DNA of 64,000 bases, from assembly GCA_965222955.1 (NCBI GenBank), contig OZ244974.1:2178977-2242976 (forward strand), given 5' to 3'. Below are positions 1,670-53,687 of the stretch, piece by piece; the stretch's first letter is position 1; each line of letters begins with the position of its first letter. The stretch comes from Hyphomicrobiales bacterium (GTDB taxonomy: Bacteria > Pseudomonadota > Alphaproteobacteria > Rhizobiales > CBDCVD01). The position numbers and the translations under genes were made by a program. The notes below the pieces were generated by a model. The model ran no database searches and had not been told where the DNA came from. It worked only from the letters and a program-made list of their open reading frames with translations.

Positions 1670-1725
1670 CTGGAGCATGTCAGGTCTTAATAGAACTGGT
1701 TCTATTAAGACCTGACATGCTCTGG
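1670..1725. repeat. family A hairpin repeat, copy A1 (short-loop variant)
   Basis: CTGGAGCATGTCAGGTCTTAATAGAACTGGTTCTATTAAGACCTGACATGCTCTGG, with ~23-bp complementary arms. It is followed by ACACGCTAG, a partial extra arm ending in CTAG at 1731..1734. Confidence 0.85.
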
Positions 1726-4428: not shown

Positions 4429-4509
4429 GTCTTTAACTTCCTCTACGCAAAACCGTTTGCTACGTCATCGCCGCCGCGACAAAAAGTACCCACAATATCG
4501 CAGCACTAG

Positions 4510-4660
4510 ATGTGTCATTTCAACAGGTTGTTCCCGGGACGGACAAATCTGGCGTGATACCTATTGCGGCCGTCGCCGCGATAGAGCCAGTTCGGGCCAT
4601 TTGTCTGATGATGGCCACCTGCACCCGACAGGTTTGCAAGAACAAACTGCTGAATTGACG
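4510..4660 (+). repeat. family E repeat, full-length copy E2
   Basis: Starts right after CTAG (4506..4509). Left end ATGTGTCATTTCAACAGGTTGTTCCCGG; right end CAAGAACAAACTGCTGAATTGAC (degenerate inverted terminus). The interior holds both internal modules (..GGCCATTTGTCTGATGATGGCC..GCACCCGACAGGTTT). Confidence 0.7.
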
Positions 4661-4706: not shown

Positions 4707-5681
4707 TCACCGATCAAACGCCGCCAGTTCGACAAGAAACGCGCCTAACGTGGCCGCAACTTCCAATCCACCGCCATCGGTTGCCAGGGTCAGCCGGATG
4801 GATTGCGTGGGATCGAATTGCCCGGGGTTTTCCCTCCAACTGCGATACAATCTGTCCAGAGGAACCGCAAAAACGGCGCGCTTGCCATGGCGCTCGTGCA
4901 ATACGGGAAGCGGCAGATAATGGGGGCTGGGCCATTCAATGAACAAATCCGGCACCACATTCGATACGGGTGTTGTCGCCTCAACGCGCAATACCGGAGC
5001 CGGTGTTTTGACAATCGACCAGCTTAAAGCCAATCGGTCCGATGTTTGCACCGGCACACGCGCACGGAACATTTCCAGACGATGGGCATTGACCGGATCA
5101 AAAGGCAGCACAACCGGAACATCCAGGGAAATCCTGCCATCTACGGGTACACAAATGTCGGCGCAGATTCCAAGTTGCGCCGTCATGCGTAACCGCGTTG
5201 GCGCGTTCCGGTCAATGCGCTCAATATCAACGGGAAAAACCACCGCATCCGTATAGCCAATGGCATGGCCACCGCCACTGCCAAAGCGCCGGGGAACCGG
5301 CCAGTGAACGTGCGCCGCGCTTATGTTTTTGGAGGCGGAAAAATCGAACACCGGCGCAATGCCGCTGTCACCGGGCATACGCCAGTACGTTTTCCACCCT
5401 TTTTTCAAGAGCACGTCAACGCCCACCCGAAGCGTATCGTTGCCAGTCGCCTCGTTTCGCTCCGGCGCTTCTTCAACGGCGATCATTTTGATCACCGCCC
5501 CTTCCACAAGCAATGGCAGACTCTCGATCGCCTGTACAGCGTCGACAGGCAGCACCAGCGCACCGACAAGCCCCCAAACCGCGCGCCGCAATCCGCATCG
5601 GCGCCAATAGCGCTGCCCCTTTTCGTCCCTGTCGCGCCCGCCATTAGCGCACTGCCGCAATATTCCCTGACAGTTTTTCAT
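4707..5681 (-). CDS. DsbD N-terminal-domain-like (DsbC/ScsB-type) thiol-disulfide protein
   Basis: 324-aa ORF with the pattern GWKTYWRMPGDSGIAP.FDF and a later ICADICVP segment, typical of periplasmic DsbD-alpha-like domains. It lies next to a peroxiredoxin. Start uncertain. Confidence 0.55.
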   Translation of the reverse strand: MKNCQGILRQCANGGRDRDEKGQRYWRRCGLRRAVWGLVGALVLPVDAVQAIESLPLLVEGAVIKMIAVEEAPERNEATGNDTLRVGVDVLLKKGWKTYWRMPGDSGIAPVFDFSASKNISAAHVHWPVPRRFGSGGGHAIGYTDAVVFPVDIERIDRNAPTRLRMTAQLGICADICVPVDGRISLDVPVVLPFDPVNAHRLEMFRARVPVQTSDRLALSWSIVKTPAPVLRVEATTPVSNVVPDLFIEWPSPHYLPLPVLHERHGKRAVFAVPLDRLYRSWRENPGQFDPTQSIRLTLATDGGGLEVAATLGAFLVELAAFDR

Positions 5682-11188: not shown

Positions 11189-11214
11189 AAGGACAACCTG
11201 TTGAAAGATCACAT
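11189..11214 (-). repeat. family E terminus fragment (E4)
   Basis: AAGGACAACCTGTTGAAAGATCACAT followed directly by CTAG (11215..11218). Confidence 0.65.
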
Positions 11215-12063
11215 CTAGCGCACAGCGCCGCGCGCCTGGCGTATGGCTCCGTACAGCCAAACGCCATAAACCAGGACCAACGCCGCGGCAAGGCCAAACC
11301 AGGTTAATGCATAAGCCAGATGATTGTTCGCGAAAACAAGTCGCGTCTCGCCGCCCTGGGGCAAGGCACCGGAAGGACCTGCCATTGCATCAACGTAAAA
11401 CGGCGCCACTCGAATGCCAACGCGGTTCAGACCGTGAGCGCGCGCAAAGGCTGCCGGATCGCGTGTATACCAGACATTGCCGGCGATATCCGCCTCCGGG
11501 CTCGCCCAGTCCGCCCGATGCGCGGAACGAACGATCCCCTCAATCGTCTGCGCGGACACGGTAATGCTCTCGGCGCGCGTATGGGACGCCTTGCGCTCAA
11601 GCGGCACAAAGCCGCGATTCACATAAACAATCGCCTCCCGGGCACCTTCATGGCGCGGCGCCCTCATGCCATCGGCACAGTCAGACGCGTTCAGGCGCAG
11701 AGGCGTCAGAACCCAGTATCCCTGCCCCCCAAACCGGCCCCTCGGCTCGCTGAGAGCGGTATAAACATGGGCTTCGAGATCATGCAGAAAACACCCGCGT
11801 AGCTGCACGCGCGTATAAGCCGACAACGCTTCCTCCACGCCACCCAATGAACGTGGCACCGTTGCCATCCGCGTCTCGATTGCAGCCAGCAACCCGGTTT
11901 TCCATTTCAGCCGGTGTAACTGCCAACGCCCCAGCGCGAGCAGCACCAGCAAGGCGGCAAGCGCAAAAACCGTGAAAATAACAACGCGGGGGTGGCGTAG
12001 CATTTCAGGAACGGACAAATTCGCCGGATTCCAGCGTGCGCTGTCATGCCTGGTGTTCATCAT
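11215..12063 (-). CDS. SURF1 family cytochrome oxidase biogenesis protein
   Basis: N-terminal TM followed by LGRWQLHRLKWK (the SURF1 hallmark), and a C-terminal TM with YALTWFGLA. It lies in the cta cluster. Start may be a downstream ATG (12003). The TAG stop lies in a CTAG abutting E4. Confidence 0.85.
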   Translation of the reverse strand: MMNTRHDSARWNPANLSVPEMLRHPRVVIFTVFALAALLVLLALGRWQLHRLKWKTGLLAAIETRMATVPRSLGGVEEALSAYTRVQLRGCFLHDLEAHVYTALSEPRGRFGGQGYWVLTPLRLNASDCADGMRAPRHEGAREAIVYVNRGFVPLERKASHTRAESITVSAQTIEGIVRSAHRADWASPEADIAGNVWYTRDPAAFARAHGLNRVGIRVAPFYVDAMAGPSGALPQGGETRLVFANNHLAYALTWFGLAAALVLVYGVWLYGAIRQARGAVR

Positions 12064-18511: not shown

Positions 18512-18650
18512 GTGTGATCTTTCAGCACGTTGTTTCCAGGACAGGCAAACCGGATGGGATCCCTCTTGTGCCCTTGCCGCCAGGGAGGCCATATCGGGCC
18601 ATCCATCTGCACCCGACGGGTTTACCAGGAACAACCTGTTGAAATTACAT
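18512..18650 (+). repeat. family E repeat, full-length copy E5
   Basis: GTGTGATCTTTCAGCACGTTGTTTCCAGGACAGGCAAACCGGATGGGAT..CCCTTGCCGCCAGGGAGGCCATATCGGGCCATCCATCTGCACCCGACGGGTTTACCAGGAACAACCTGTTGAAATTACAT. Both termini and both internal modules are present. A family A one-arm fragment follows at 18653..18668 (TTAGAGCGTGTCCAGG). Confidence 0.85.
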
Positions 18651-18837
18651 ATTTAGAGCGTGTCCAGGCCGGACAACAAGTGCGGTTCGCGGCCATCACG
18701 GAAACGAATTCGCCCCGGTACCATGATTCGCGTGATATTCCATGATATTCATTGTACCGTTGTTGTGCTGCTGTGATTTGACCCTGTGGGATGACGGGAT
18801 GGCTTGAGGTAAACGTTGCTCATTTTATAGACTCCAG

Positions 18838-19019: not shown

Positions 19020-19601
19020 ATGATAAACTCCCCCGCACACTGGCGCGATGGCGCGCGGTTTGTTTTGCGATTGTGGCTTGCAATGTATTTTTCAGGGGCA
19101 CGGCGCCCGGGTCTGTACCGGGCAATCGTTACCGTGTTTGCCTTTGCATTTGCGCTCCCGGCGGCGCAGGCGCAGAGCGCAACGCAAAAGACCTTCGGCG
19201 CCTGGGAAATGCGTTGCGAGCAACCGAGCGGCGCGCGTAATACCGAATGCGCCCTTGTTAACAGCGTTACATCCAGCGACGACAATGGTGTCGCGCTGAC
19301 CGTTCTGGCGCTGAAGACGGCCGACAACAAGGTACATCTTTTGCGCGTATTGGCGCCCCTTGGTGTTCTTCTGCCGCCCGGGCTGGGCCTGAAAATCGAT
19401 GACACGGACGTGGGTAGCGCCGAATTCGCCAAGTGTTTGCCGAACGGTTGTCTGGCCGAGGTGATTTTGAGCGAGACCCAGATCGCGCGCTTTAAAACCG
19501 GAAAGTCAGCGCTGTTCATTATTTTTAAATCTCCTAATGAAGGGATCGGAATTCCCATTGATTTGAATGGCTTTGCTCAGGGTCTTGAAGAATTGCCTTA
19601 G
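19020..19601 (+). CDS. invasion associated locus B (IalB) family protein
   Basis: Signal peptide (..FAFAFALPAAQAQ), then TFGAWEMRCEQP..ECALV..LRVLAPLGVLLPPGL.LKIDD..CLPNGCLAEV, typical of the IalB family. Start is ATG 19020 (GAAAGG 12 nt upstream) or ATG 19083. The TAG stop lies in TTAG at the edge of E15. Confidence 0.8.
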   Translation: MINSPAHWRDGARFVLRLWLAMYFSGARRPGLYRAIVTVFAFAFALPAAQAQSATQKTFGAWEMRCEQPSGARNTECALVNSVTSSDDNGVALTVLALKTADNKVHLLRVLAPLGVLLPPGLGLKIDDTDVGSAEFAKCLPNGCLAEVILSETQIARFKTGKSALFIIFKSPNEGIGIPIDLNGFAQGLEELP

Positions 19602-19650
19602 AGCCAGGTGTGTAAATGCAACAGATTGTTCCCGGTGAATCCAGCGGATG
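19602..19650 (+). repeat. family E terminus fragment (E15)
   Basis: AGCCAGGTGTGTAAATGCAACAGATTGTTCCCGG.. (compare E14 CCAGGTGTGTAATTTCAGCAGGTTGTCCCTG). It is followed by a family A one-arm fragment, CTGGAGCGTGTCAG, at 19651..19664. Confidence 0.6.
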
Positions 19651-19685
19651 CTGGAGCGTGTCAGTTTTTAGCTGAAAGGCTCTAG

Positions 19686-21130
19686 CAGTGTGTCGGGTTT
19701 AAGGAGTTGTTTGTCAGTGTATCGGTCATGGATATGTGTTGGCGAGGGCTTTGCTGAACCTGCCTTAGCCGCTCAGCATGTTGCTCAGACGTTTGCAGTT
19801 GTACGCCAGCGCTACAAGACACCATTCCCGTGAAACCTTCTCAAGACCGCGAAGATGAAAATGCCTGAAACCAAGTACCGATTTGATTATGCCAAAAACA
19901 GGCTCAACGCTGCTCTTTCGTCTTTTGTATTTGTCTTTTGCCGACCGGGATCGAAATCTCTCCAGCATCTGTAAGCGCCACGGCTCTCTAACACGAGGCG
20001 GCGGCTTGCTGCGCGCCTTCGGCGGCCGGAAATCATAAGGGCGCCGTGCCTGTTCACGCTCTAACGCTATCAAAGGTTCAATGTCACGCTCATCAAGCGC
20101 CTCAACAACAGTCTTACCAGCATAACCCGTATCCGCTATAAGCGTCTCGGGCTTGCCAACACGCGCGCACAAGTCATCAACAAAGATATCCAAATCCTGA
20201 CGATCATTCGTCGTGGTAAGAACTTGCGTACCCAAAACCAATTGGCTGCCATCCGCATCCACAAAAGCTTGCGCATTATAAGCCTGACGGTATTCGTGGC
20301 GTGACGACCGGCGCATGATAGAACTGTCCGGATCGCTCAGATTAATCTGGTTCTCAGGACAAGGCCGTGGCGGATTGCCCCCATCATCCTGATCTTGCCC
20401 ATCACAACGCGCCGCCGCCTCAAGTTGTGCGGCTGCCACGTCCAACTTCGCCTTTAACGTTTGCCGCCGCGCTATCTCGTCGGGGAGAGACAAACCATCA
20501 TCCGTATCCTGTTCATCTGCCGCCTCGGCCCTGTCCATCAACGCCGCAATGTCCTCTGCAAGCTTCGCCCGTAACGCCTGGATACGATCATAACGTATCG
20601 ACTTGATCTTTGAAGCATTCGCATCAATCTGCGTGCCGTCGAGGGCGACCGTGCCCACCCTTAAAAGACCCATCTGTTTGGCCAGCAACAGGATATGCGT
20701 AAACGCCGCCTCAAAGGCAGGACCGTTGTCACGCCGGAACTTGGCGATCGTGTCATGGTCCGGATGGCTGTTGGCGGCGATAAAGCGGACAGAAACATTG
20801 CGATACGTTGCCTGCTCTATCTTGCGCGAGGAAAAAACACCAATGGCGTAACTATAAATCAACAGGGCCACCATCATGCGCGGATGATATTGTGCTTTTC
20901 CTGAGCCGGTGCGGCTGACGTGAAAGGCGTTCATATCTATGCGTTCGACGGCTTCCACGATAAAATGGGCCAAGTCGTCATCTGCCACCCAGTCTTTGAG
21001 ATCAGGAGGCAAAAGCAGCCGCTGAGAGCGGTCATAATTGCGAAAATTGTTCATACAAATCCGTAGCACAAATCCAAAAACCCCTGTATGCAAACTTAAC
21101 GAATAACCACAGCATAAATCCGACACACTG
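19686..21130 (-). mobile_element. IS1182-family insertion sequence, apparently intact (1445 bp)
   Basis: Terminal inverted repeats are CAGTGTGTCGGGTTTAAGG (19686->) and CAGTGTGTCGGATTTATG (reverse complement of ..21130). The first 11 nt are identical and about 15 of the first 17 match. Direct CTAG at 19682..19685 and 21131..21134 is consistent with a 4-bp target duplication. It carries a single transposase ORF. Confidence 0.85.
19765..21054 (-). CDS. IS1182-family (IS5-like DDE) transposase
   Basis: N-terminus MNNFRNYDRSQRLLLPPDLKDWVADDDLAHFIVEAVERIDM and C-terminal VEPVFGIIKSVLGFRHFHLRGLEKVSREWCLVALAYNCKRL are characteristic of IS1182-group transposases. An acidic coiled middle is present. 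Start set at ATG 21054. Confidence 0.85.
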   Translation of the reverse strand: MNNFRNYDRSQRLLLPPDLKDWVADDDLAHFIVEAVERIDMNAFHVSRTGSGKAQYHPRMMVALLIYSYAIGVFSSRKIEQATYRNVSVRFIAANSHPDHDTIAKFRRDNGPAFEAAFTHILLLAKQMGLLRVGTVALDGTQIDANASKIKSIRYDRIQALRAKLAEDIAALMDRAEAADEQDTDDGLSLPDEIARRQTLKAKLDVAAAQLEAAARCDGQDQDDGGNPPRPCPENQINLSDPDSSIMRRSSRHEYRQAYNAQAFVDADGSQLVLGTQVLTTTNDRQDLDIFVDDLCARVGKPETLIADTGYAGKTVVEALDERDIEPLIALEREQARRPYDFRPPKARSKPPPRVREPWRLQMLERFRSRSAKDKYKRRKSSVEPVFGIIKSVLGFRHFHLRGLEKVSREWCLVALAYNCKRLSNMLSG

Positions 21131-21162
21131 CTAGAAGTTTCACCTCAGATTTATCCGTCTTG

Positions 21163-21188
21163 TACACAACCTGCTGAAAAATCACACT
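21163..21188 (-). repeat. family E terminus fragment (E7)
   Basis: TACACAACCTGCTGAAAAATCACACT, a degenerate match to GAACAACCTG(C/T)TGAAAGATCACAT. Confidence 0.5.
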
Positions 21189-21976: not shown

Positions 21977-22656
21977 AGAGCTGCGTTATTGTCTTTCCCG
22001 GCTCCAATCGCGAGGACGATGCGATACGCGCCATCGCAGGTACCGGCGCCCGCGCCCCCCTGCCCGTCTGGCATGCGGATACGCACCTGCCCCGGTGCGA
22101 TCTGGTTGTCCTGCCCGGCGGGTTTTCCTATGGCGACTATTTGCGCCCCGGCGCCATCGCCGCGCGCGCGCCCATTATGCGCGCTATCGCCGATCATGCC
22201 GCTCAGGGCCGCCTGCTTTTGGGGATCTGTAACGGTTTTCAGATTTTGACCGAGTGCGGGCTGCTTCCCGGCGTATTGCAGCGCAATCGCGCCCTGCGTT
22301 TTATCTGCAAACAGGCACATGTACGCGTGTGCCGCACCGATACGCCCTTTACCCATCGCTATCGCAATGACCAGGTGATGCGGGTGCCCATCGCCCATCA
22401 CGATGGCAATTACTTCGCCGATGCCGATACCCTGGCGCGCCTTGAGGACGAGGCCGGTGTTGTCCTTCGCTATTGCAACACCGATGGCCAGGTGACCGCC
22501 GCTGCCAACCCGAACGGCTCGCGCAACAATATCGCCGGAATTATCAACAAGAACGCCAACATACTCGGGCTGATGCCCCACGCCGAGAACGCCGTCGACC
22601 ATCGCCACGGCGGCACCGACGGCCAGGCCCTGTTCGCCGCGTTGTACCAGCGCTAG
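21973..22656 (+). CDS. purQ: phosphoribosylformylglycinamidine synthase subunit PurQ (glutaminase)
   Basis: 227 aa. VIVFPGSNRE, LPGGFSYGDYLR, GICNGFQIL (catalytic Cys), MPHAENA. The TAG stop is part of the CTAG that opens hairpin A2. Confidence 0.95.
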   Translation: MKSCVIVFPGSNREDDAIRAIAGTGARAPLPVWHADTHLPRCDLVVLPGGFSYGDYLRPGAIAARAPIMRAIADHAAQGRLLLGICNGFQILTECGLLPGVLQRNRALRFICKQAHVRVCRTDTPFTHRYRNDQVMRVPIAHHDGNYFADADTLARLEDEAGVVLRYCNTDGQVTAAANPNGSRNNIAGIINKNANILGLMPHAENAVDHRHGGTDGQALFAALYQR

Positions 22657-22714
22657 AGCGTGTCAGGTCTTAATAGAAACAGAATTGCTTCTATTAAGAC
22701 CTGACACGCTCTAT
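22653..22714. repeat. family A hairpin repeat, copy A2
   Basis: CTAGAGCGTGTCAGGTCTTAATAGAAACAGAATTGCTTCTATTAAGACCTGACACGCTCTAT, with ~25-bp arms. Confidence 0.9.
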
Positions 22715-23756: not shown

Positions 23757-23817
23757 CTGGAGCGTGTCAGGTCTTCACAGAACCAATTCTGTTTATATTA
23801 AGACCTGACACGCTCTC
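23757..23817. repeat. family A hairpin repeat, copy A3 (divergent loop)
   Basis: CTGGAGCGTGTCAGGTCTTCACAGAACCAATTCTGTTTATATTAAGACCTGACACGCTCTCG. Confidence 0.85.
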
Positions 23818-24205: not shown

Positions 24206-26455
24206 ATGTCCTACAATGAGCCAACGATCACCCCTGAGCTTGTAGCCGAACACGGTTTGAGCGATGACGATTATGCCAAAATCCTGAGCCTTCTGGGGCG
24301 CCCGCCGCGCTTTACCGAATTGGGCATCTTCTCCGCCATGTGGAACGAGCATTGTTCCTATAAGTCGTCGAAAAAATGGCTGCGCACCCTGCCTACGCAA
24401 GGTAGACGGGTGATCACGGGTCCGGGAGAGAACGCCGGCGTTATCGACATCGGCGACGGGCTGGCGGCGGTGTTCAAGATCGAGAGCCACAATCACCCCT
24501 CGTTTATTGAGCCCTATCAGGGCGCGGCGACTGGAGTCGGCGGCATCCTGCGCGATGTCTTTACCATGGGCGCGCGCCCCATCTGCGCCATGAATGCGTT
24601 GCGCTTTGGCGATCCCGATCACGAGAAAACACGTCACCTGCTGAACGGCGTCGTTGCCGGCATCGGCGGCTACGGGAATTCGTTTGGCGTACCGACCATC
24701 GCCGGCGAAATCGGCTTTGACAAGCGTTACAACGGGAATATCCTGGTCAATGCATTTGCCTGTGGGATCGCGCCCGCCAACAGGATATTCTATGCCAGGG
24801 CAAGCGGCGTTGGATTGCCGGTGGTCTATCTCGGCGCCAGGACGGGGCGCGACGGCATCCATGGCGCGACCATGGCGTCGGCTGAATTCACCGATGACGT
24901 GCACGCTATTGATGCGAAACGGCCAACGGTGCAGGTGGGCGATCCGTTTACCGAAAAGCGCCTGATGCAGGCCTGTCTGGAACTGATGCAGGCGGGCGCA
25001 GTAGTCGCCATTCAGGACATGGGAGCAGCCGGACTGACGTGCTCGGCGGTTGAGATGGGGGCCAAGGGCGATCTCGGAATCGCGCTTGATCTTGATCGCG
25101 TGCCGTGCCGCGAAGAGGCCATGAGCGCCTATGAAATGATGCTCTCGGAGAGCCAGGAGCGCATGTTGATGGTCCTTGATCCGGCCAGGCAACAGACCGC
25201 CGCCGGTATCATGGAAAAATGGGGGCTTGATTTTGCTGTCATTGGCGAGACCACCGATGATTTGCGCTTTCGTATCCAGCACGGGGGCGAGTGTGTCGCC
25301 GATCTGCCCATCAAGGCCCTTGGCGATCAGGCGCCGGAATATGACCGGCCCCATGTACCCACGCCGTCGCGCCCCGATGTAAAATCGCCCCAGGTACCCG
25401 AGCCGGACGATTTTGCCGGGGTGCTGGTCGCGATGATGGGTTCGCCGCATTTGTGTTCGCGCCGCTTTGTGTGGGAGCAGTACGATCACTATATTCTGTC
25501 CAACACTGTTCTGCCGCCGGGCGCCGATGCCGCCGTTGTGCGCATCGGCGACAGCAATCGCGGCCTGGCCTTTTGCGTCGACACAACACCGCGCTATTGC
25601 GCCGCTGATCCGTATCAGGGCGGCAGGCAGGCAGTGGCGGAGGTCTGGCGCAATCTCAACTGCGTGGGCGCGCAGCCCCTGGCGATCACCAATTGTCTTA
25701 ATTTCGGCAATCCGGAACGGCCCGAAATCATGGGCCAGTTGGTCGATTGTATCCGCGGCATCAGCGCCGCCTGTACAACCCTTGAGATGCCTGTCGTCTC
25801 GGGCAATGTATCCCTCTACAACGAGACCGAGGGCGTCGCCATTCCGCCGACGCCAACAATCGCCGGTGTGGGTCTGATCGCGGATCTGGACGTGATGGTC
25901 ACACCCGCCTTCAAACGGGCGGGCGATTCTCTCTATCTCGTGGGACGCGATACGGGCCTGCTCAATCAATCGCTCTACCTGCGCGATATCGCCGGTATCG
26001 AGGATAGCGCCGCGCCCGGCGTCGATCTTGAGCAGGAGAGGCGCAATGGCGACTTCGTGCGGTCCCTCATTGAGGCCCGCGCCATCAACGCCTGTCACGA
26101 TATTGCCGATGGCGGCCTTCTTGTCGCTGTAGCGGAGATGGCCCTTGCCGCCGGTATGGGGGCCACCCTTCGCCTCGATCCGGCCCCTGGGTATCGTCTT
26201 GCGGCATATTTTGGCGAAGCCCAGGGGCGCTATGTGATCGCCAGCGCCACTCCTCTTGAGGCACTTGCGGCTCAATATAACGCCCGATCGGAAGCCGATG
26301 GCGCCCCGTCAATCGATCTGATGCATATCGGTCGCGTGGGCGGCGAGATGCTTCTGGTGGATACGGTACTGGCGGTGGCCCTGGAGGTGCTTCGCCGCCC
26401 CCATGAGACCTGGCTTGCCGATTACGCCGATGGCGCCGGCGCCTCAAGGGACTAG
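24206..26455 (+). CDS. purL: phosphoribosylformylglycinamidine synthase subunit PurL
   Basis: 749 aa. [35 protein letters not shown] and duplicated AIR-synthase-like domains. The TAG stop is part of the CTAG that opens hairpin A4. Confidence 0.95.
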
Positions 26456-26513
26456 AGCGTGTCAGGTCTTAATAGAAACAGAATTGCTTCTATTTAGACC
26501 TGACACACTCTGG
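26452..26513. repeat. family A hairpin repeat, copy A4
   Basis: CTAGAGCGTGTCAGGTCTTAATAGAAACAGAATTGCTTCTATTTAGACCTGACACACTCTGG. Confidence 0.9.
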
Positions 26514-27409: not shown

Positions 27410-28042
27410 ATGAGCGGAGAGCTTGGAACCCTGGAATTAAGCGCACTACTATGCTCACGTGTTTGCCACGACATCATCAGCCCCGTCGGCGCCGTCATCA
27501 ACGGCCTTGAGGTTCTGGAGGAGGACAACAGCGAGGAAATGCGCGCTTTTGCCGACGATCTTATCCGCAAAAGCGCCAACCAGGCCTCGGCCAAACTGCA
27601 GTTCGCCCGCCTCGCCTTTGGGGCGGCCGGCTCGGCAGGCGCCGAAATCGATACCCGTGATGCGCAAGCCGTCGCCGCCGCCTATGTGGGTAACGAGAAA
27701 ACCCGTCTGGAATGGAACATCGCGCCGCTCCTGATGGCCAAGAACAAGGTCAAACTCCTGCTCAATCTGATTATTATCGGCGGTCATACGATCCCGCGCG
27801 GTGGCACCATTGCGGTTTCCATGCAAGGGGATGCGCAAGGCCCCGCCTTTGTGCTGGCGTGCACGGGAACGGGGGCACGTATTCCCGATGACACCAAGGC
27901 GCTTCTTGCGGCAAAAGCGGATCCGGATACGATCGATGCCCATCGTGTACAGGCTTATTACACCGGCTTGCTGGCGCGTGCGAGCCACATGGAGATCGAT
28001 CTGACCCTGCACGATGAGTGCGTCACCATCAGCGCCCACTAG
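27410..28042 (+). CDS. chpT: histidine phosphotransferase ChpT (CtrA phosphorelay)
   Basis: 210 aa. LLCSRVCHDIISPVGAVINGLEVLEE (HisKA-like His box without a kinase ATP lid), typical of alphaproteobacterial ChpT. The TAG stop is part of the CTAG that opens A5. Confidence 0.85.
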   Translation: MSGELGTLELSALLCSRVCHDIISPVGAVINGLEVLEEDNSEEMRAFADDLIRKSANQASAKLQFARLAFGAAGSAGAEIDTRDAQAVAAAYVGNEKTRLEWNIAPLLMAKNKVKLLLNLIIIGGHTIPRGGTIAVSMQGDAQGPAFVLACTGTGARIPDDTKALLAAKADPDTIDAHRVQAYYTGLLARASHMEIDLTLHDECVTISAH

Positions 28043-28393
28043 AGCGTGTCAGGTCTTAATGGAAGCAATTCTGTTTCTCGATTGGCGAGGCGATACCCAC
28101 GCTCAAGGCGATCGAAGAGCGATGGCGACCCATCTCTCGAGAGCGGCTTGGGCGTGGGCGTCCGCCAATCGGAAACCCGAAGGGACGGGCGATTTTGCTA
28201 TAGATTTCAGGGCGATCAGCTTTATGCGTTTCGCATTACCCTTGGCAAAATGGGTACAGCGAAACGCATGCTGATCTAATATGAACCTTAAGTCTCTTGA
28301 AAATAGCCCCACTATATCCTGCGAGACTTAAGGCCCATCTTGTCGCAAAAGTGCTCCGTCAGAATGGTTCTATTAAGACCTGACACGCTCTAG
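28039..28393. repeat. family A hairpin (copy A5, long form) split by a ~285-bp nested insert of further palindromes
   Basis: The left arm at 28039..28078 (CTAGAGCGTGTCAGGTCTTAATGGAAGCAATTCTGTTTCTCG) and the right arm at 28362..28393 (GAATGGTTCTATTAAGACCTGACACGCTCTAG) are separated by three units. These are palindrome CGATTGGCGAGGCGATACCCACGC/GCGTGGGCGTCCGCCAATCG (28079..28171), family D copy D1 (28214..28276) and hairpin CCTTAAGTCTC/GAGACTTAAGG (28286..28333). Confidence 0.75.
28214..28276 (+). repeat. family D hairpin repeat, copy D1
   Basis: GATCAGCTTTATGCGTTTCGCATTACCCTTGGCAAAATGGGTACAGCGAAACGCATGCTGATC. The reverse complement of the 37303..37365 copy matches at most positions. Confidence 0.8.
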
Positions 28394-32529: not shown

Positions 32530-32563
32530 CGCCAGGTGCCACCTGGAGCGTGTCAGATAAAAG

Positions 32564-33781: not shown

Positions 33782-33881
33782 TACCAGCGGTATTGGCTTT
33801 TTTACACGCTGACTTGTGTATTCTGCTGAGAAGACAACGGTTTTAAACCGGGCCAGGAGTCAAACGCAAAGCCCCCTGGTA
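33782..33881 (+). mobile_element. family B MITE-like element, copy B2
   Basis: TACCAGCGGTATTGGCTTTTTTACACGCTGACTTGTGTATTCTGCTGAGAAGACAACGGTTTTAAACCGGGCCAGGAGTCAAACGCAAAGCCCCCTGGTA. The flanks are CAA and TAA. Confidence 0.8.
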
Positions 33882-34618: not shown

Positions 34619-35236
34619 CTAGCGCGAGTAGAACTCAATCACCAGATTCGGCTCCATCTGCACCGGATACGGCACGTCGGCCAGGGCCGGAATGCGCGTA
34701 AGTGAAGCCGTCATTTTCGTGTGATCGGCGTCGATATAGTCCGGCACATCGCGCTCAGGACTCTGCAGCGCCTCAAGAACGATGATCAGGTCTTTGGAGC
34801 GCTTGCGCACCTCAACCACATCGCCCACCTTGCAGCGATAGCTCGGGATATTAACCCGGCGTCCATTAACGCGCACATGGCCGTGATTGACGAACTGCCG
34901 TGCGGCAAACACCGTAGGGACGAATTTGGCACGATAAACGATGGCATCAAGGCGCCGCTCAAGCAGGCCGATAAGATTCTCTGACGTATCCCCCTTTTGC
35001 CGTGACGCCTCACTATAGATGCGCTTGAACTGCTTTTCCGTGATATTGCCGTAATAACCCTTGAGCTTTTGCTTGGCGCGCAATTGCAGTCCGAAGTCGG
35101 AATGCTTGCCGCGCCGGCGCTGGCCGTGTTGGCCGGGACCGTAGTCGCGCGTATTGACGGGGCTCTTCGGCCGCCCCCAGATGTTCTCACCCAGACGGCG
35201 GTCGATCTTATACTTCTGTGTATGGCGTTTTGACAT
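34619..35236 (-). CDS. rpsD: 30S ribosomal protein S4
   Basis: [26 protein letters not shown]..., 205 aa, with an S4 RNA-binding domain. Start at ATG 35236. The TAG stop is part of CTAG 34619..34622 at a family A one-arm fragment (GAGACACGCTCTAG). Confidence 0.95.
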
Positions 35237-46429: not shown

Positions 46430-46528
46430 TACCAGCGGTATTGGTTTTCTACACGCTGACGTGTGCATCGTACTGACAAGACAACAGTTTTAAACCAAAC
46501 CAGGAGTCAAGCGCAAAGCCCCTTGTTA
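46430..46528 (+). mobile_element. family B MITE-like element, copy B3 (right end degenerate)
   Basis: TACCAGCGGTATTGGTTTTCTACACGCTGACGTGTGCATCGTACTGACAAGACAACAGTTTTAAACCAAACCAGGAGTCAAGCGCAAAGCCCCTTGTTA. The left flank is TAA. Confidence 0.75.
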
Positions 46529-46823: not shown

Positions 46824-46885
46824 CTAGAGCGTGTCAGGTCTCAATAGAAGCAATTCTGTTTCTATTAAGACCTGACACGCTCCAG
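46824..46885. repeat. family A hairpin repeat, copy A6 (loop inverted relative to A2/A4)
   Basis: CTAGAGCGTGTCAGGTCTCAATAGAAGCAATTCTGTTTCTATTAAGACCTGACACGCTCCAG. It is followed by CGCCAATACCGCTGTAA, a solo family B terminus-like fragment (46886..46902). Confidence 0.9.
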
Positions 46886-52279: not shown

Positions 52280-52344
52280 AGCCTGGGTATCGCCTCGCCA
52301 ATCGAGAAACAGAATTGCTTCTATTAAGACCTGACACGCTCTAG
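52276..52344. repeat. family A repeat, copy A7 (long form, one extended arm)
   Basis: CTAGAGCCTGGGTATCGCCTCGCCAATCGAGAAACAGAATTGCTTCTATTAAGACCTGACACGCTCTAG. Confidence 0.85.
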
Positions 52345-53603: not shown

Positions 53604-53627
53604 TATACTTTACACTGAACGCAACAC

Positions 53628-53687
53628 CAGATACATCTCGCCCAGATACATCTCGCCCAGATACATCTCGCCCAGATACATCTCGCA
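53628..53687. repeat. 15-bp tandem repeat, 4 units
   Basis: CAGATACATCTCGCC x3 perfect (53628..53672), plus CAGATACATCTCGCA (53673..53687). It starts 25 nt upstream of the SH3-gene ORF start, in a divergent intergenic region. Confidence 0.95.

Follow-up and report, generated by a model that had tools for sequence, protein, structure and literature searches.

The DNA considered here is a 64-kb stretch of contig OZ244974.1 from a Hyphomicrobiales bacterium (hereafter the window), and it carries a complete insertion sequence (IS) of the IS1182 family together with several families of short dispersed repeats, of which one, family A, has termini resembling those of the IS. The IS is 1445 bp long and lies on the minus strand at 19686..21130. 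Its left border, at 19678-19704, reads ggct-CTAG-CAGTGTGTCGGGTTTAAGG, and its right border, at 21114-21138, reads ATAAATCCGACACACTG-CTAG-aagt. In a pattern search CAGTGTGTCGGRTTTA has two matches only in the whole window, in inverted orientation at 19686-19701 (+) and 21115-21130 (-), and these are the terminal inverted repeats: CAGTGTGTCGGGTTTA on the transposase-downstream side (19686..19701, plus strand), which is also the end that best matches the family A arm, and CAGTGTGTCGGATTTA, read on the minus strand, on the transposase-upstream side (21115..21130). These 16-bp inverted ends agree at 15 of 16 positions, and a CTAG is present on both sides of the element, at 19682..19685 and 21131..21134, representing the putative left and right copies of a target-site duplication.

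The sole long open reading frame (ORF) of the IS ends at 19765 on the minus strand and encodes, from an ATG at 21054, a DDE-type transposase of 429 amino acids (aa; gene 19765..21054); with a GTG at 21126 as start instead, the product would be 453 aa long. The protein matches the NCBIfam model NF033551, 'IS1182 family transposase', at 325.5 bits where the cut-off is 270, the match covering positions 1-486 of the 488 in the profile, and falls far under the cut-offs of the IS5, ISNCY and IS701 models (73.6 bits against 140 for IS5). Its Pfam domains are DUF772, DDE_Tnp_1 and DDE_Tnp_1_6, and its length compares with 425-437 aa in relatives, as expected of a full-length protein. In an alignment of eight proteins with identities down to 47%, D139 (in DGT), D308 (in DxGY), E384 and K391 are invariant, and from their motif context these are the putative DDE(K) residues; the gene looks intact. 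IS1182-family elements have a single ORF and inverted ends, and are about 1.3-1.95 kb in length according to ISfinder. The window element belongs with them by profile score, domain make-up, inverted ends around one ORF, and size, and the earlier note's claim of an intact IS1182-family element between CTAGs is borne out by the ends, the 429-aa ORF and the NF033551 score. The presence of this IS is confirmed, and it is an ordinary element that by itself would be a matter of routine annotation.

Other copies and relatives of the IS were examined in a sample consisting of the window and 33 loci of OZ245032.1, about 280 kb around family A arms, OZ245032.1 being a 3.50-Mb 'Hyphomicrobiales bacterium' metagenome-assembled genome. 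The window transposase is identical to a database protein, P0001, on a 3,393,886-bp contig, and the P0001 genome has at least three transposase variants, two of them full length and identical at 427 of 429 positions. The next relative, P0002 (87% amino-acid identity), is from OZ245032.1, which encodes 11 transposase protein variants. At least six full IS copies are present in the 33 loci, with mutual identities of 98.5-99.9%, and these share 92% nucleotide identity with the window copy over its full length, homology stopping at the CTAG flanks. All complete copies in these loci have CTAG on both sides; a lone IS end without CTAG (L030 5149) has a mutated tip. Because the copies in OZ245032.1 are 98.5-99.9% identical and both genomes contain multiple protein variants, the IS appears to have been active recently, and it may still be so. 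More widely, proteins of this clade share 31-54% identity with named plasmid-borne IS1182 members (the plasmid homologues carry the annotations IS1182 family, ISKpn6 and ISAzo1), and the closest relatives of the clade are unnamed metagenome sequences, at 65-72%.

The two host genomes are considerably further apart than their mobile elements. The window PurL (24206-26455) and its OZ245032.1 counterpart (L113 10001-12268) are only 70% identical, and a search of the protein database with the window PurL gave nothing above 70% identity, though the window transposase is in that same database. Yet the IS and family A co-occur in both genomes, the IS at 92% nucleotide identity and family A with identical arms and a long form that is 89% identical. 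With hosts this distant, both elements have evidently passed between lineages, and the mobile elements are of much more recent date than the split of the hosts.

The CTAG at the window copy is its own reverse complement, so that a 4-bp duplication, a TA duplication and an extended inverted repeat are indistinguishable there, and relatives with non-palindromic flanks are more informative. A relative on plasmid pGXY010 of Komagataeibacter medellinensis is flanked by CTAA/CTAA, and relatives on two metagenome contigs by CTAA/CTAA (L061) and TTAG/TTAG (L067); a Mesorhizobium AR07 relative has CTAG/CTAG, and the flank consensus over 140 collected IS ends is Y-T-A-G. Since the non-palindromic flanks are direct repeats, they indicate that insertion of this IS clade duplicates 4 bp at YTAR, as happens with IS5, and the same would hold for the window copy itself. 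For the target of the IS1182 family we found nothing in the literature beyond ISPsy36, which uses the 4-bp palindromic target GGCC (PMC8027508), in keeping with a duplication of 4 bp.

In the window CTAG occurs 19 times, where base composition predicts about 236 occurrences and a second-order Markov estimate 31, and at least 13 of the 19 are at borders of repeats or of the IS. Four IS copies of OZ245032.1 lie exactly on the CTAG closing a family A arm (L001 2925, L011 6193, L027 1525 and L030 2320). The suggestion of the earlier note that repeat edges serve as preferred targets is upheld by these four, the preference arising because the CTAGs are located there. The repeat fragments that it listed around the window IS are also present on both sides: to the left an E-like copy (19601-19661), an A tip (19655-19666) and an inverted E-variant tip GCTGAAAGGCT (19671-19681), and to the right an E right end (21166-21186). 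The insertion site is older repeat debris at 19655..19681 (plus strand), namely a fragment of a family A tip, AGCGTGTCAG, and after it the inverted E-variant tip, GCTGAAAGGCT, which would have supplied the target CTAG; the latter junction, GCTGAAAGGCT|CTAG, can be compared with CTAG|AGCCTTTCAGC at 28390. We propose that the DDE transposase of the IS inserts at YTAR, here CTAG, duplicating 4 bp; that CTAG is about 12-fold depleted in the genome with most survivors bordering earlier insertions; and that new insertions consequently would hit the edges of older repeats, giving nested arrays and a gain of one CTAG per insertion.

Family A is defined by an arm, AGCGTGTCAGGTCTTAA (also given as AGCGTGTCAGGTCTTAATAGAA), that occurs 17 times in the window at up to three mismatches compared with an expectation of 0.04. 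The window contains six complete inverted pairs of these arms, most of them flanked by CTAG. In OZ245032.1 the majority of the A elements are not hairpins, being instead units of 266-272 bp with hairpin-type arms, and eight of these units align over their entire length. Altogether 22 complete copies are present in the window and the 33 loci, with sizes of 48-557 bp and terminal inverted repeats of 22-36 nt that are paired in all sequences; the 22-nt arms lengthen to about 32 nt in the long form. There is no conserved ORF, a candidate 25-aa frame being broken in an Aminobacter copy described below. Family A is small, non-coding, present in multiple copies at differing loci and bounded by terminal inverted repeats, and has the properties of MITEs (miniature inverted-repeat transposable elements). 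Within the purL region its copies are at non-orthologous positions in the window genome and OZ245032.1.

The long form in the window, at 28043..28389 (plus strand), is 347 bp long, consists of the ~272-bp MITE and an insert of about 79 bp, has CTAG on both sides and is 89% identical to its counterpart in L003. In the 54-bp hairpins, 36 nt from the start of the left end (...TTCTGTTTCT) run into the final 18 nt of the right end (ATTAAGACCTGACACGCT), with the join at a TTCT microhomology. They are located at 22657..22710 and 26456..26509 (both minus strand), at 46828..46881 (plus strand; this one adjoins an E right end, the two having a CTAG in common) and, in a diverged form with flanks CTGG/CTCG, at 23761..23814 (plus strand). 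All of them have the same junction, and a single deletion derivative has thus been copied to several sites. A 48-bp form (window 1674..1721, L009 and L019) is a perfect palindrome, the window copy having flanks CTGG/CTGG, and a truncated element at 52280..52340 (minus strand) consists of one arm and about 40 nt of the left module between two CTAGs. Two statements of the earlier note need revision in this light. It described the hairpins as bracketed by CTAG, which holds for most complete copies with the exception of variants such as CTGG/CTGG and CTGG/CTCG; and it described them as two IS ends back to back, which does not hold, the hairpin being a 36 + 18 nt deletion derivative of a ~272-bp MITE whose interior is unlike the IS.

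Several A elements abut coding sequences. The TAG stop codons of purQ, purL and a gene for an HPt-domain protein lie inside the CTAG flanking A elements (22653-22656, 26452-26455 and 28039-28042, respectively), the left CTAGs of the hairpins at 22657 and 26456 providing the purQ and purL stops. Insertion at such C-TAG stops would be neutral because the flank retains the stop. A number of solo tips consist of NTAG and the 8 nt with which the A arm opens, AGCGTGTC, beyond which the sequence is unique and unrelated; these are at 18657, 32547, 34618 (minus strand), 52433 and 19655 in the window and at L011 246, L022 1176, L007 1376 and L014 3464. The break is always directly after GTGTC, and the solo tips may be remnants of palindrome deletion or footprints. 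Beside one of them, the stop codon of rpsD (minus strand) overlaps the CTAG at 34619-34622. The facing solo tips at 32547 and 34618, 2.07 kb apart, were considered as the two ends of one large element, and this was rejected as they enclose a porin-like gene and rpmG. In some of the OZ245032.1 long forms the arms enclose arrays of ~103-bp tandem units, which gives elements as long as 557 bp as well as lone arms with arrays behind them (L006 ~1450-2790, L022 ~4790-5480 and L028 ~1400-1820).

Homologues of family A are also found on plasmids; they are CTAG-flanked, share 74% identity over about 140 bp and can be aligned from one end to the other. These sister MITEs are carried by Aminobacter niigataensis pcAMD1 and three plasmids of Phyllobacterium sp. 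628, and are 270-283 bp long (for example L114 3005-3283 on pcAMD1 and L115 2985-3262 on Phyllobacterium sp. 628 p_2). The inner module (TTCTGTTTCTCGRWTGGCGAG...) is common to these and family A, and the tips differ; tips vary between host genera with both arms altered together, 28 pairs being changed on both sides. The entire MITE folds as a rod with a nested inner hairpin in which small stems are kept and loops are variable (e.g. CCC-GAA-GGG versus CC-TTCG-GG). Among the tblastn matches listed there is no IS1182 copy on the Aminobacter and Phyllobacterium sp. 628 plasmids, and the inner module is absent from 80 metagenome IS loci.

The relationship between the A tip and the IS ends was evaluated by tests anchored at the tip. 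The earlier note reported a match at 10 of 12 positions after a 1-nt offset; this is correct, and extends to 14/17 with one gap or to 15/23 ungapped. For the IS end at 19686 the ungapped 15/23 match after the 1-nt offset has a shuffle p of 7.5e-4 (four ends and three offsets allowed), and a tip-anchored gapped test over the first 20 nt gives p=0.003. The negative controls, namely the tip of the IS481-family element and those of three repeat families (E, E-variant and D6), gave p values of 0.07-0.47 against the IS ends. A second match is provided by the Aminobacter sister MITE, whose tip, AGCCTTTCTGGCTTAGATTGAA, agrees at 19 of 23 positions with an end box, GAGCCTGTCGGACTTAGATTGAA, of soil-metagenome IS1182 members, a value reached by 0 of 300 shuffles. 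Across 140 IS ends position 0 is C or G, followed by A, G, Y, C, TGTCGG, R, Y and TT; positions 5-14 were fixed by the search pattern, so that constancy there is by construction, although a motif-free inverted-repeat search also found TGTCGG in every recovered IS end. The resemblance of the ends appears to be real and modest, and family A would be of the IS1182 end type, (C/G)AG-Y-C-TGTCGG-R-Y-TT.

Hybrid ends are found in both directions. An IS copy 99% identical to its sisters ends CTAG-AGCGTGTC-GGATTTGGG instead of CTAG-CAGTGTGTC-GGATTTGGG (L011 4746 = L113 17552); its tip, CTAG AGCGTGTC GGATTT, is at L011 4739-4760 (= L113 17552-17570), and its other end adjoins a family A arm. Conversely, an A-type arm at L002 5822 starts CTAG-CAGTGTGTC-AGGTCTTA. 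The hybrids show that the two tips are exchangeable in nature. The hybrid IS end (L011) was not adopted as proof that the tips are interchangeable, since a deletion between that end and an adjacent A arm, at the GTGTC which both have, explains it equally well. For both hybrids, deletion or recombination between neighbouring elements at this GTGTC is as good an explanation as functional equivalence.

From these comparisons we suggest that family A is a separate non-coding element whose full form is a ~272-bp MITE with CTAG flanks, the 54- and 48-bp hairpins being internal-deletion derivatives. Because its tip, AGCGTGTCAGGTCTTA, shares the end type of the IS1182 clade, mobilisation in trans by an IS1182-family transposase is the most likely route, and the resident IS is the best helper candidate seen. 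We consider it probable that family A is a MITE lineage of IS1182 type, and rate slightly lower, although still on the favourable side, the explanation taken as a whole, with IS activity, CTAG nesting and the movement of A by an IS1182-type transposase all included. The resident IS as the helper of family A is a plausible candidate, falling somewhat short of probable; what we infer above all is the cross-mobilisation of A by this particular transposase. The ~280 kb around A arms contain just two multi-copy elements that encode a transposase, namely this IS and one of the IS481 family, the ends of the latter matching family E and not A.

A number of observations weigh against this explanation. 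The kinship of the ends is only partly sustained, in that the A tip beats chance and the tips of other repeats do not, and yet family A conflicts with two positions that are constant in all IS ends from the motif-free search, having A for the first G of the GG in TGTCGG and C for a T in TT, and both family A and the Aminobacter sister MITE are without IS position 0. The similarity of A to the IS does not extend beyond about 17-23 nt, the MITE interior is without similarity to the IS, and the tip-anchored gapped test is weak (p=0.05) for the IS end at 21130, on the transposase-upstream side; the unanchored local alignments of 120-150-nt IS ends with A ends are not significant (p 0.09-0.87). By comparison, family E and its IS481-family IS agree at roughly 80% over about 27 nt (counted by eye, without alignment), so that the family A-IS match is clearly the weaker one. 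The soil-metagenome end box matched by the Aminobacter tip seems to be subterminal, with the inverted repeat running further outward, and the match of this tip to CTAG-flanked members such as the Mesorhizobium copy is about 13/16. CTAG borders are also found in IS481-family and IS5-like elements, and with at least three transposase families using CTAG this sequence cannot identify the partner of family A. The ~280 kb sampled are about 8% of OZ245032.1, the window genome is represented by 64 kb, and in the 344 kb examined there are no paralogous empty sites for the 22 complete A copies.

The flanks of family A are the main anatomical argument against a mechanism common to A and the IS. Most are CTAG/CTAG, palindromic and hence uninformative, but the variants tend to be mirror-symmetric (L009 CTAA/TTAG, L019 CTAT/ATAG and L025 ATAG/CTAT), whereas the IS clade has direct repeats, and there is one direct variant pair only, the CTGG/CTGG at window 1674; CTAG/CTAA (L030b) and CTAG/CTAT (window 22657) also occur. 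The element-adjacent flank base is nearly always G, and in the outer position C, T and A all occur. A TA duplication with G...C ends fits such flanks no worse than a 4-bp duplication does, and so does an inverted repeat in which the four bases are counted. IS630 inserts at CTAG, duplicating TA, and the mirror-type flanks keep alive an alternative that makes A a TA-duplicating MITE, either of IS630/Tc1-mariner type or of another TA-duplicating type in the IS5 group, inserting at NTAN, preferably CTAG, with ends G...C, its likeness to IS1182 being incidental. The flanks suit a 2-bp TA better than 4 bp, with L025 (A-TA-G...C-TA-T), L030b and window 22657 all consistent. No IS630-type or other multi-copy transposase gene is seen in the ~280-kb sample, however, the similarity of the tips to IS1182 ends is significant for both family A and the Aminobacter sister, and the CTGG/CTGG at window 1674 contains no TA duplication; we regard this alternative as improbable.

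The main rival to the resident IS as helper is an unsampled cognate IS, probably of another IS1182 subclade, that ends exactly in AGCGTGTCAGG... and would move family A, leaving the window IS as only a cousin. It would explain why A differs from the sampled IS ends at otherwise constant positions and is without position 0, and the Aminobacter sister, with the identical 1-nt offset and changed position, points to a MITE lineage with its own stable tip type. That the tips change by host genus with the arms remaining paired is also what one would expect of tips that follow a cognate transposase, and only a small part of each genome was sampled. On the other hand, of the ~45 A arms in the OZ245032.1 sample not one borders a transposase gene, there is no shared core of more than 300 bp between arms, TGTCAGG is in none of ~130 IS1182-clade ends, and plasmids in PLSDB yielded no IS with A-type ends, only the sister MITEs. 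An all-against-all BLAST of the 3 kb inward from 24 lone arms gave mosaic modules and ~103-bp tandem units, with no transposase, and the repeats of at least 350 bp in the sample are the IS1182 element, the IS481 element, the A long forms and one repeat of 400-534 bp. A cognate IS of this kind seems to us a doubtful but serious possibility.

Two further alternatives were considered. Family A could be a host-maintained structural repeat (e.g. a 3' mRNA hairpin) akin to REP or BIME sequences, spread by recombination or simply retained, and no longer a transposase substrate. The consecutive purQ, purL and HPt-domain genes all stop on the TAG of an A-element flank, the inner module of the rod-like MITE with its nested hairpins is 74% conserved across distant genera with stems kept and loops variable, and the solo tips and mosaics, of which there are many, point to decay and recombination. 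But identical arms at non-orthologous sites in genomes with PurL only 70% identical argue for movement, the 54-bp junction shared by four loci indicates that a unit was copied, the GT[AG]G head of REP sequences is absent, and Rfam at gathering thresholds returned a tRNA as its sole match, with no family for the MITE; we think this a shade less likely even than the TA-duplicating MITE. Least likely of all, and very improbable, is that the resemblance of the ends is a coincidence arising from several repeat families, two IS ends and several offsets. Unanchored alignments not reaching significance would agree with it, as would the weakening of a p of ~1e-3 to ~4e-3 when about five families are allowed for, and the p of 0.27 obtained with a 70%-identity clade consensus. 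It is countered by the independent second match of the Aminobacter sister MITE at 19/23, the 4-bp flank common to family A and the IS, the occurrence of hybrid ends in nature, and the failure of the negative controls to reach significance. We retain mobilisation of family A by an IS1182-family transposase as the preferred explanation.

Other elements, some of them bordered by CTAG, share these genomes. The IS481-family IS of OZ245032.1 is 1057 bp long and present at L004 5963-7019 and L021 5164-6220 in copies that are 99.7% identical; it encodes 344 aa with rve and LZ_Tnp_IS481 domains, and its ends, CTAG-ATGTGTAACGTCAAGAGGTTGTC, are those of the window family E termini, e.g. CTAG-ATGTGTCATTTCAACAGGTTGTTCC at 4506. 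Examples of family E copies in the window are at 4506-4563, 11190-11218 and 18628-18656, and family E is most likely a MITE of this IS481-family IS. In L021 the IS481-family IS is located on the CTAG of an A arm, and an IS5-like fragment (DUF4096) in L001 ends at CTAG. A third small element of about 101 bp, with ends TACCAG(C/G)GG...CCCCTGGTA, is found in the window at 439-539, 33782-33881, 46430-46528 and 56874-about 56976. The first copy lies inside the TTAA of a family A arm, which it splits with a duplication of TAA (or TA), and the fourth is flanked by TAA/TAA; relatives in L113 occupy the gene intervals NUDIX/EipA and EipA/HPt. We also note a 15-bp unit, CCAGATACATCTCGC, in four perfect tandem copies at window 53627-53686, and that the repeat of 400-534 bp (L020 926-1323, L030 1510-2043 and L031 6709-7243; copies 98.7% identical) has, at two of its three positions, a family A arm next to it at CTAG/TTAA.

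The closest published parallel to family A is MITEPye1 of Paracoccus yeei, a 159-bp element with 18-bp inverted ends like those of ISPye18 (IS1182 family) and 4-bp direct repeats, which is intergenic, folds as a long stem-loop, is present at 1-3 copies per chromosome and is predicted to be mobilised in trans by IS1182-family transposases (PMC11578231). The likeness to family A drawn here is one of description: both are alphaproteobacterial non-coding elements with IS1182-like ends and a stem-loop fold. Family A departs from MITEPye1 in its length of ~272 bp with 54- and 48-bp derivatives, in its far greater abundance, with at least six complete copies in 64 kb, in its nesting with other repeats, and in its weaker match to the ends of the resident IS. 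An IS1182-derived MITE is thus already published, and family A would be of the same kind in another alphaproteobacterial order.

The window IS resembles ISPsy36, ISKpn6 and ISAzo1 in transposase family by profile, in its one ORF and in its short inverted ends, and ISPsy36 in having a 4-bp palindromic target, which for the window clade is YTAR/CTAG instead of GGCC. IS5 also has a YTAR target with a 4-bp duplication, and in Brucella small palindromic intergenic repeats (Bru-RS) act as hot spots for IS711. Insertion at YTAR/CTAG and palindromic repeats as hot spots are common to these and the window IS, but IS5 and IS711 have IS5-family transposases, and the Brucella repeats are targets and are not proposed to be IS derivatives. 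The IS481 family, with its target NCTAGN, constitutes a co-resident CTAG-targeting system with MITEs of its own, differing in its rve-type integrase fold and in ends (ATGTGTAACGTCAAGAGGTTGTC) that are unlike those of family A or IS1182 (p 0.07). Repeats of the Correia, ERIC and REPIN types are abundant short intergenic palindromes near gene ends and can be co-transcribed; they have other ends and partners, whereas family A has a full-length MITE parent with IS1182-type tips. REP/REPIN sequences in particular come as palindromes of 20-40 nt that carry a conserved GT[AG]G head and go with a Y1 transposase (RAYT) gene that units flank, while the family A arms start with AGCGTGTC after CTAG, without such a head, and derive from a 272-bp parent with an unrelated interior.

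On a broader view, we speculate that a CTAG-starved genome hosts a guild of unrelated CTAG-using transposons, of IS1182, IS481 and IS5-like types, each with its miniatures, that would seed targets for one another and so build mosaic arrays, often on C-TAG stops with the stop preserved by duplication; the IS1182 transposase would move a 54-bp substrate (36 + 18 nt) and tolerate both CAGTGTGTC and AGCGTGTC tips, and the solo tips would be its footprints. As a complete scheme we hold this to be rather unlikely. The useful result is a map of element identities in a very repeat-rich Hyphomicrobiales genome, in which A is a probable MITE lineage with IS1182-type ends, E goes with an IS481-family IS, a third element is at TAA/TTAA, and elements pile up at the few CTAGs retained. 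If it is true that an IS1182 transposase moves the 54-bp hairpin, this would be a very small natural substrate and a handy model of what a little-studied transposase family requires at its ends, and mobilisation of the hairpin would also explain the growth of the mosaic intergenic repeat arrays.

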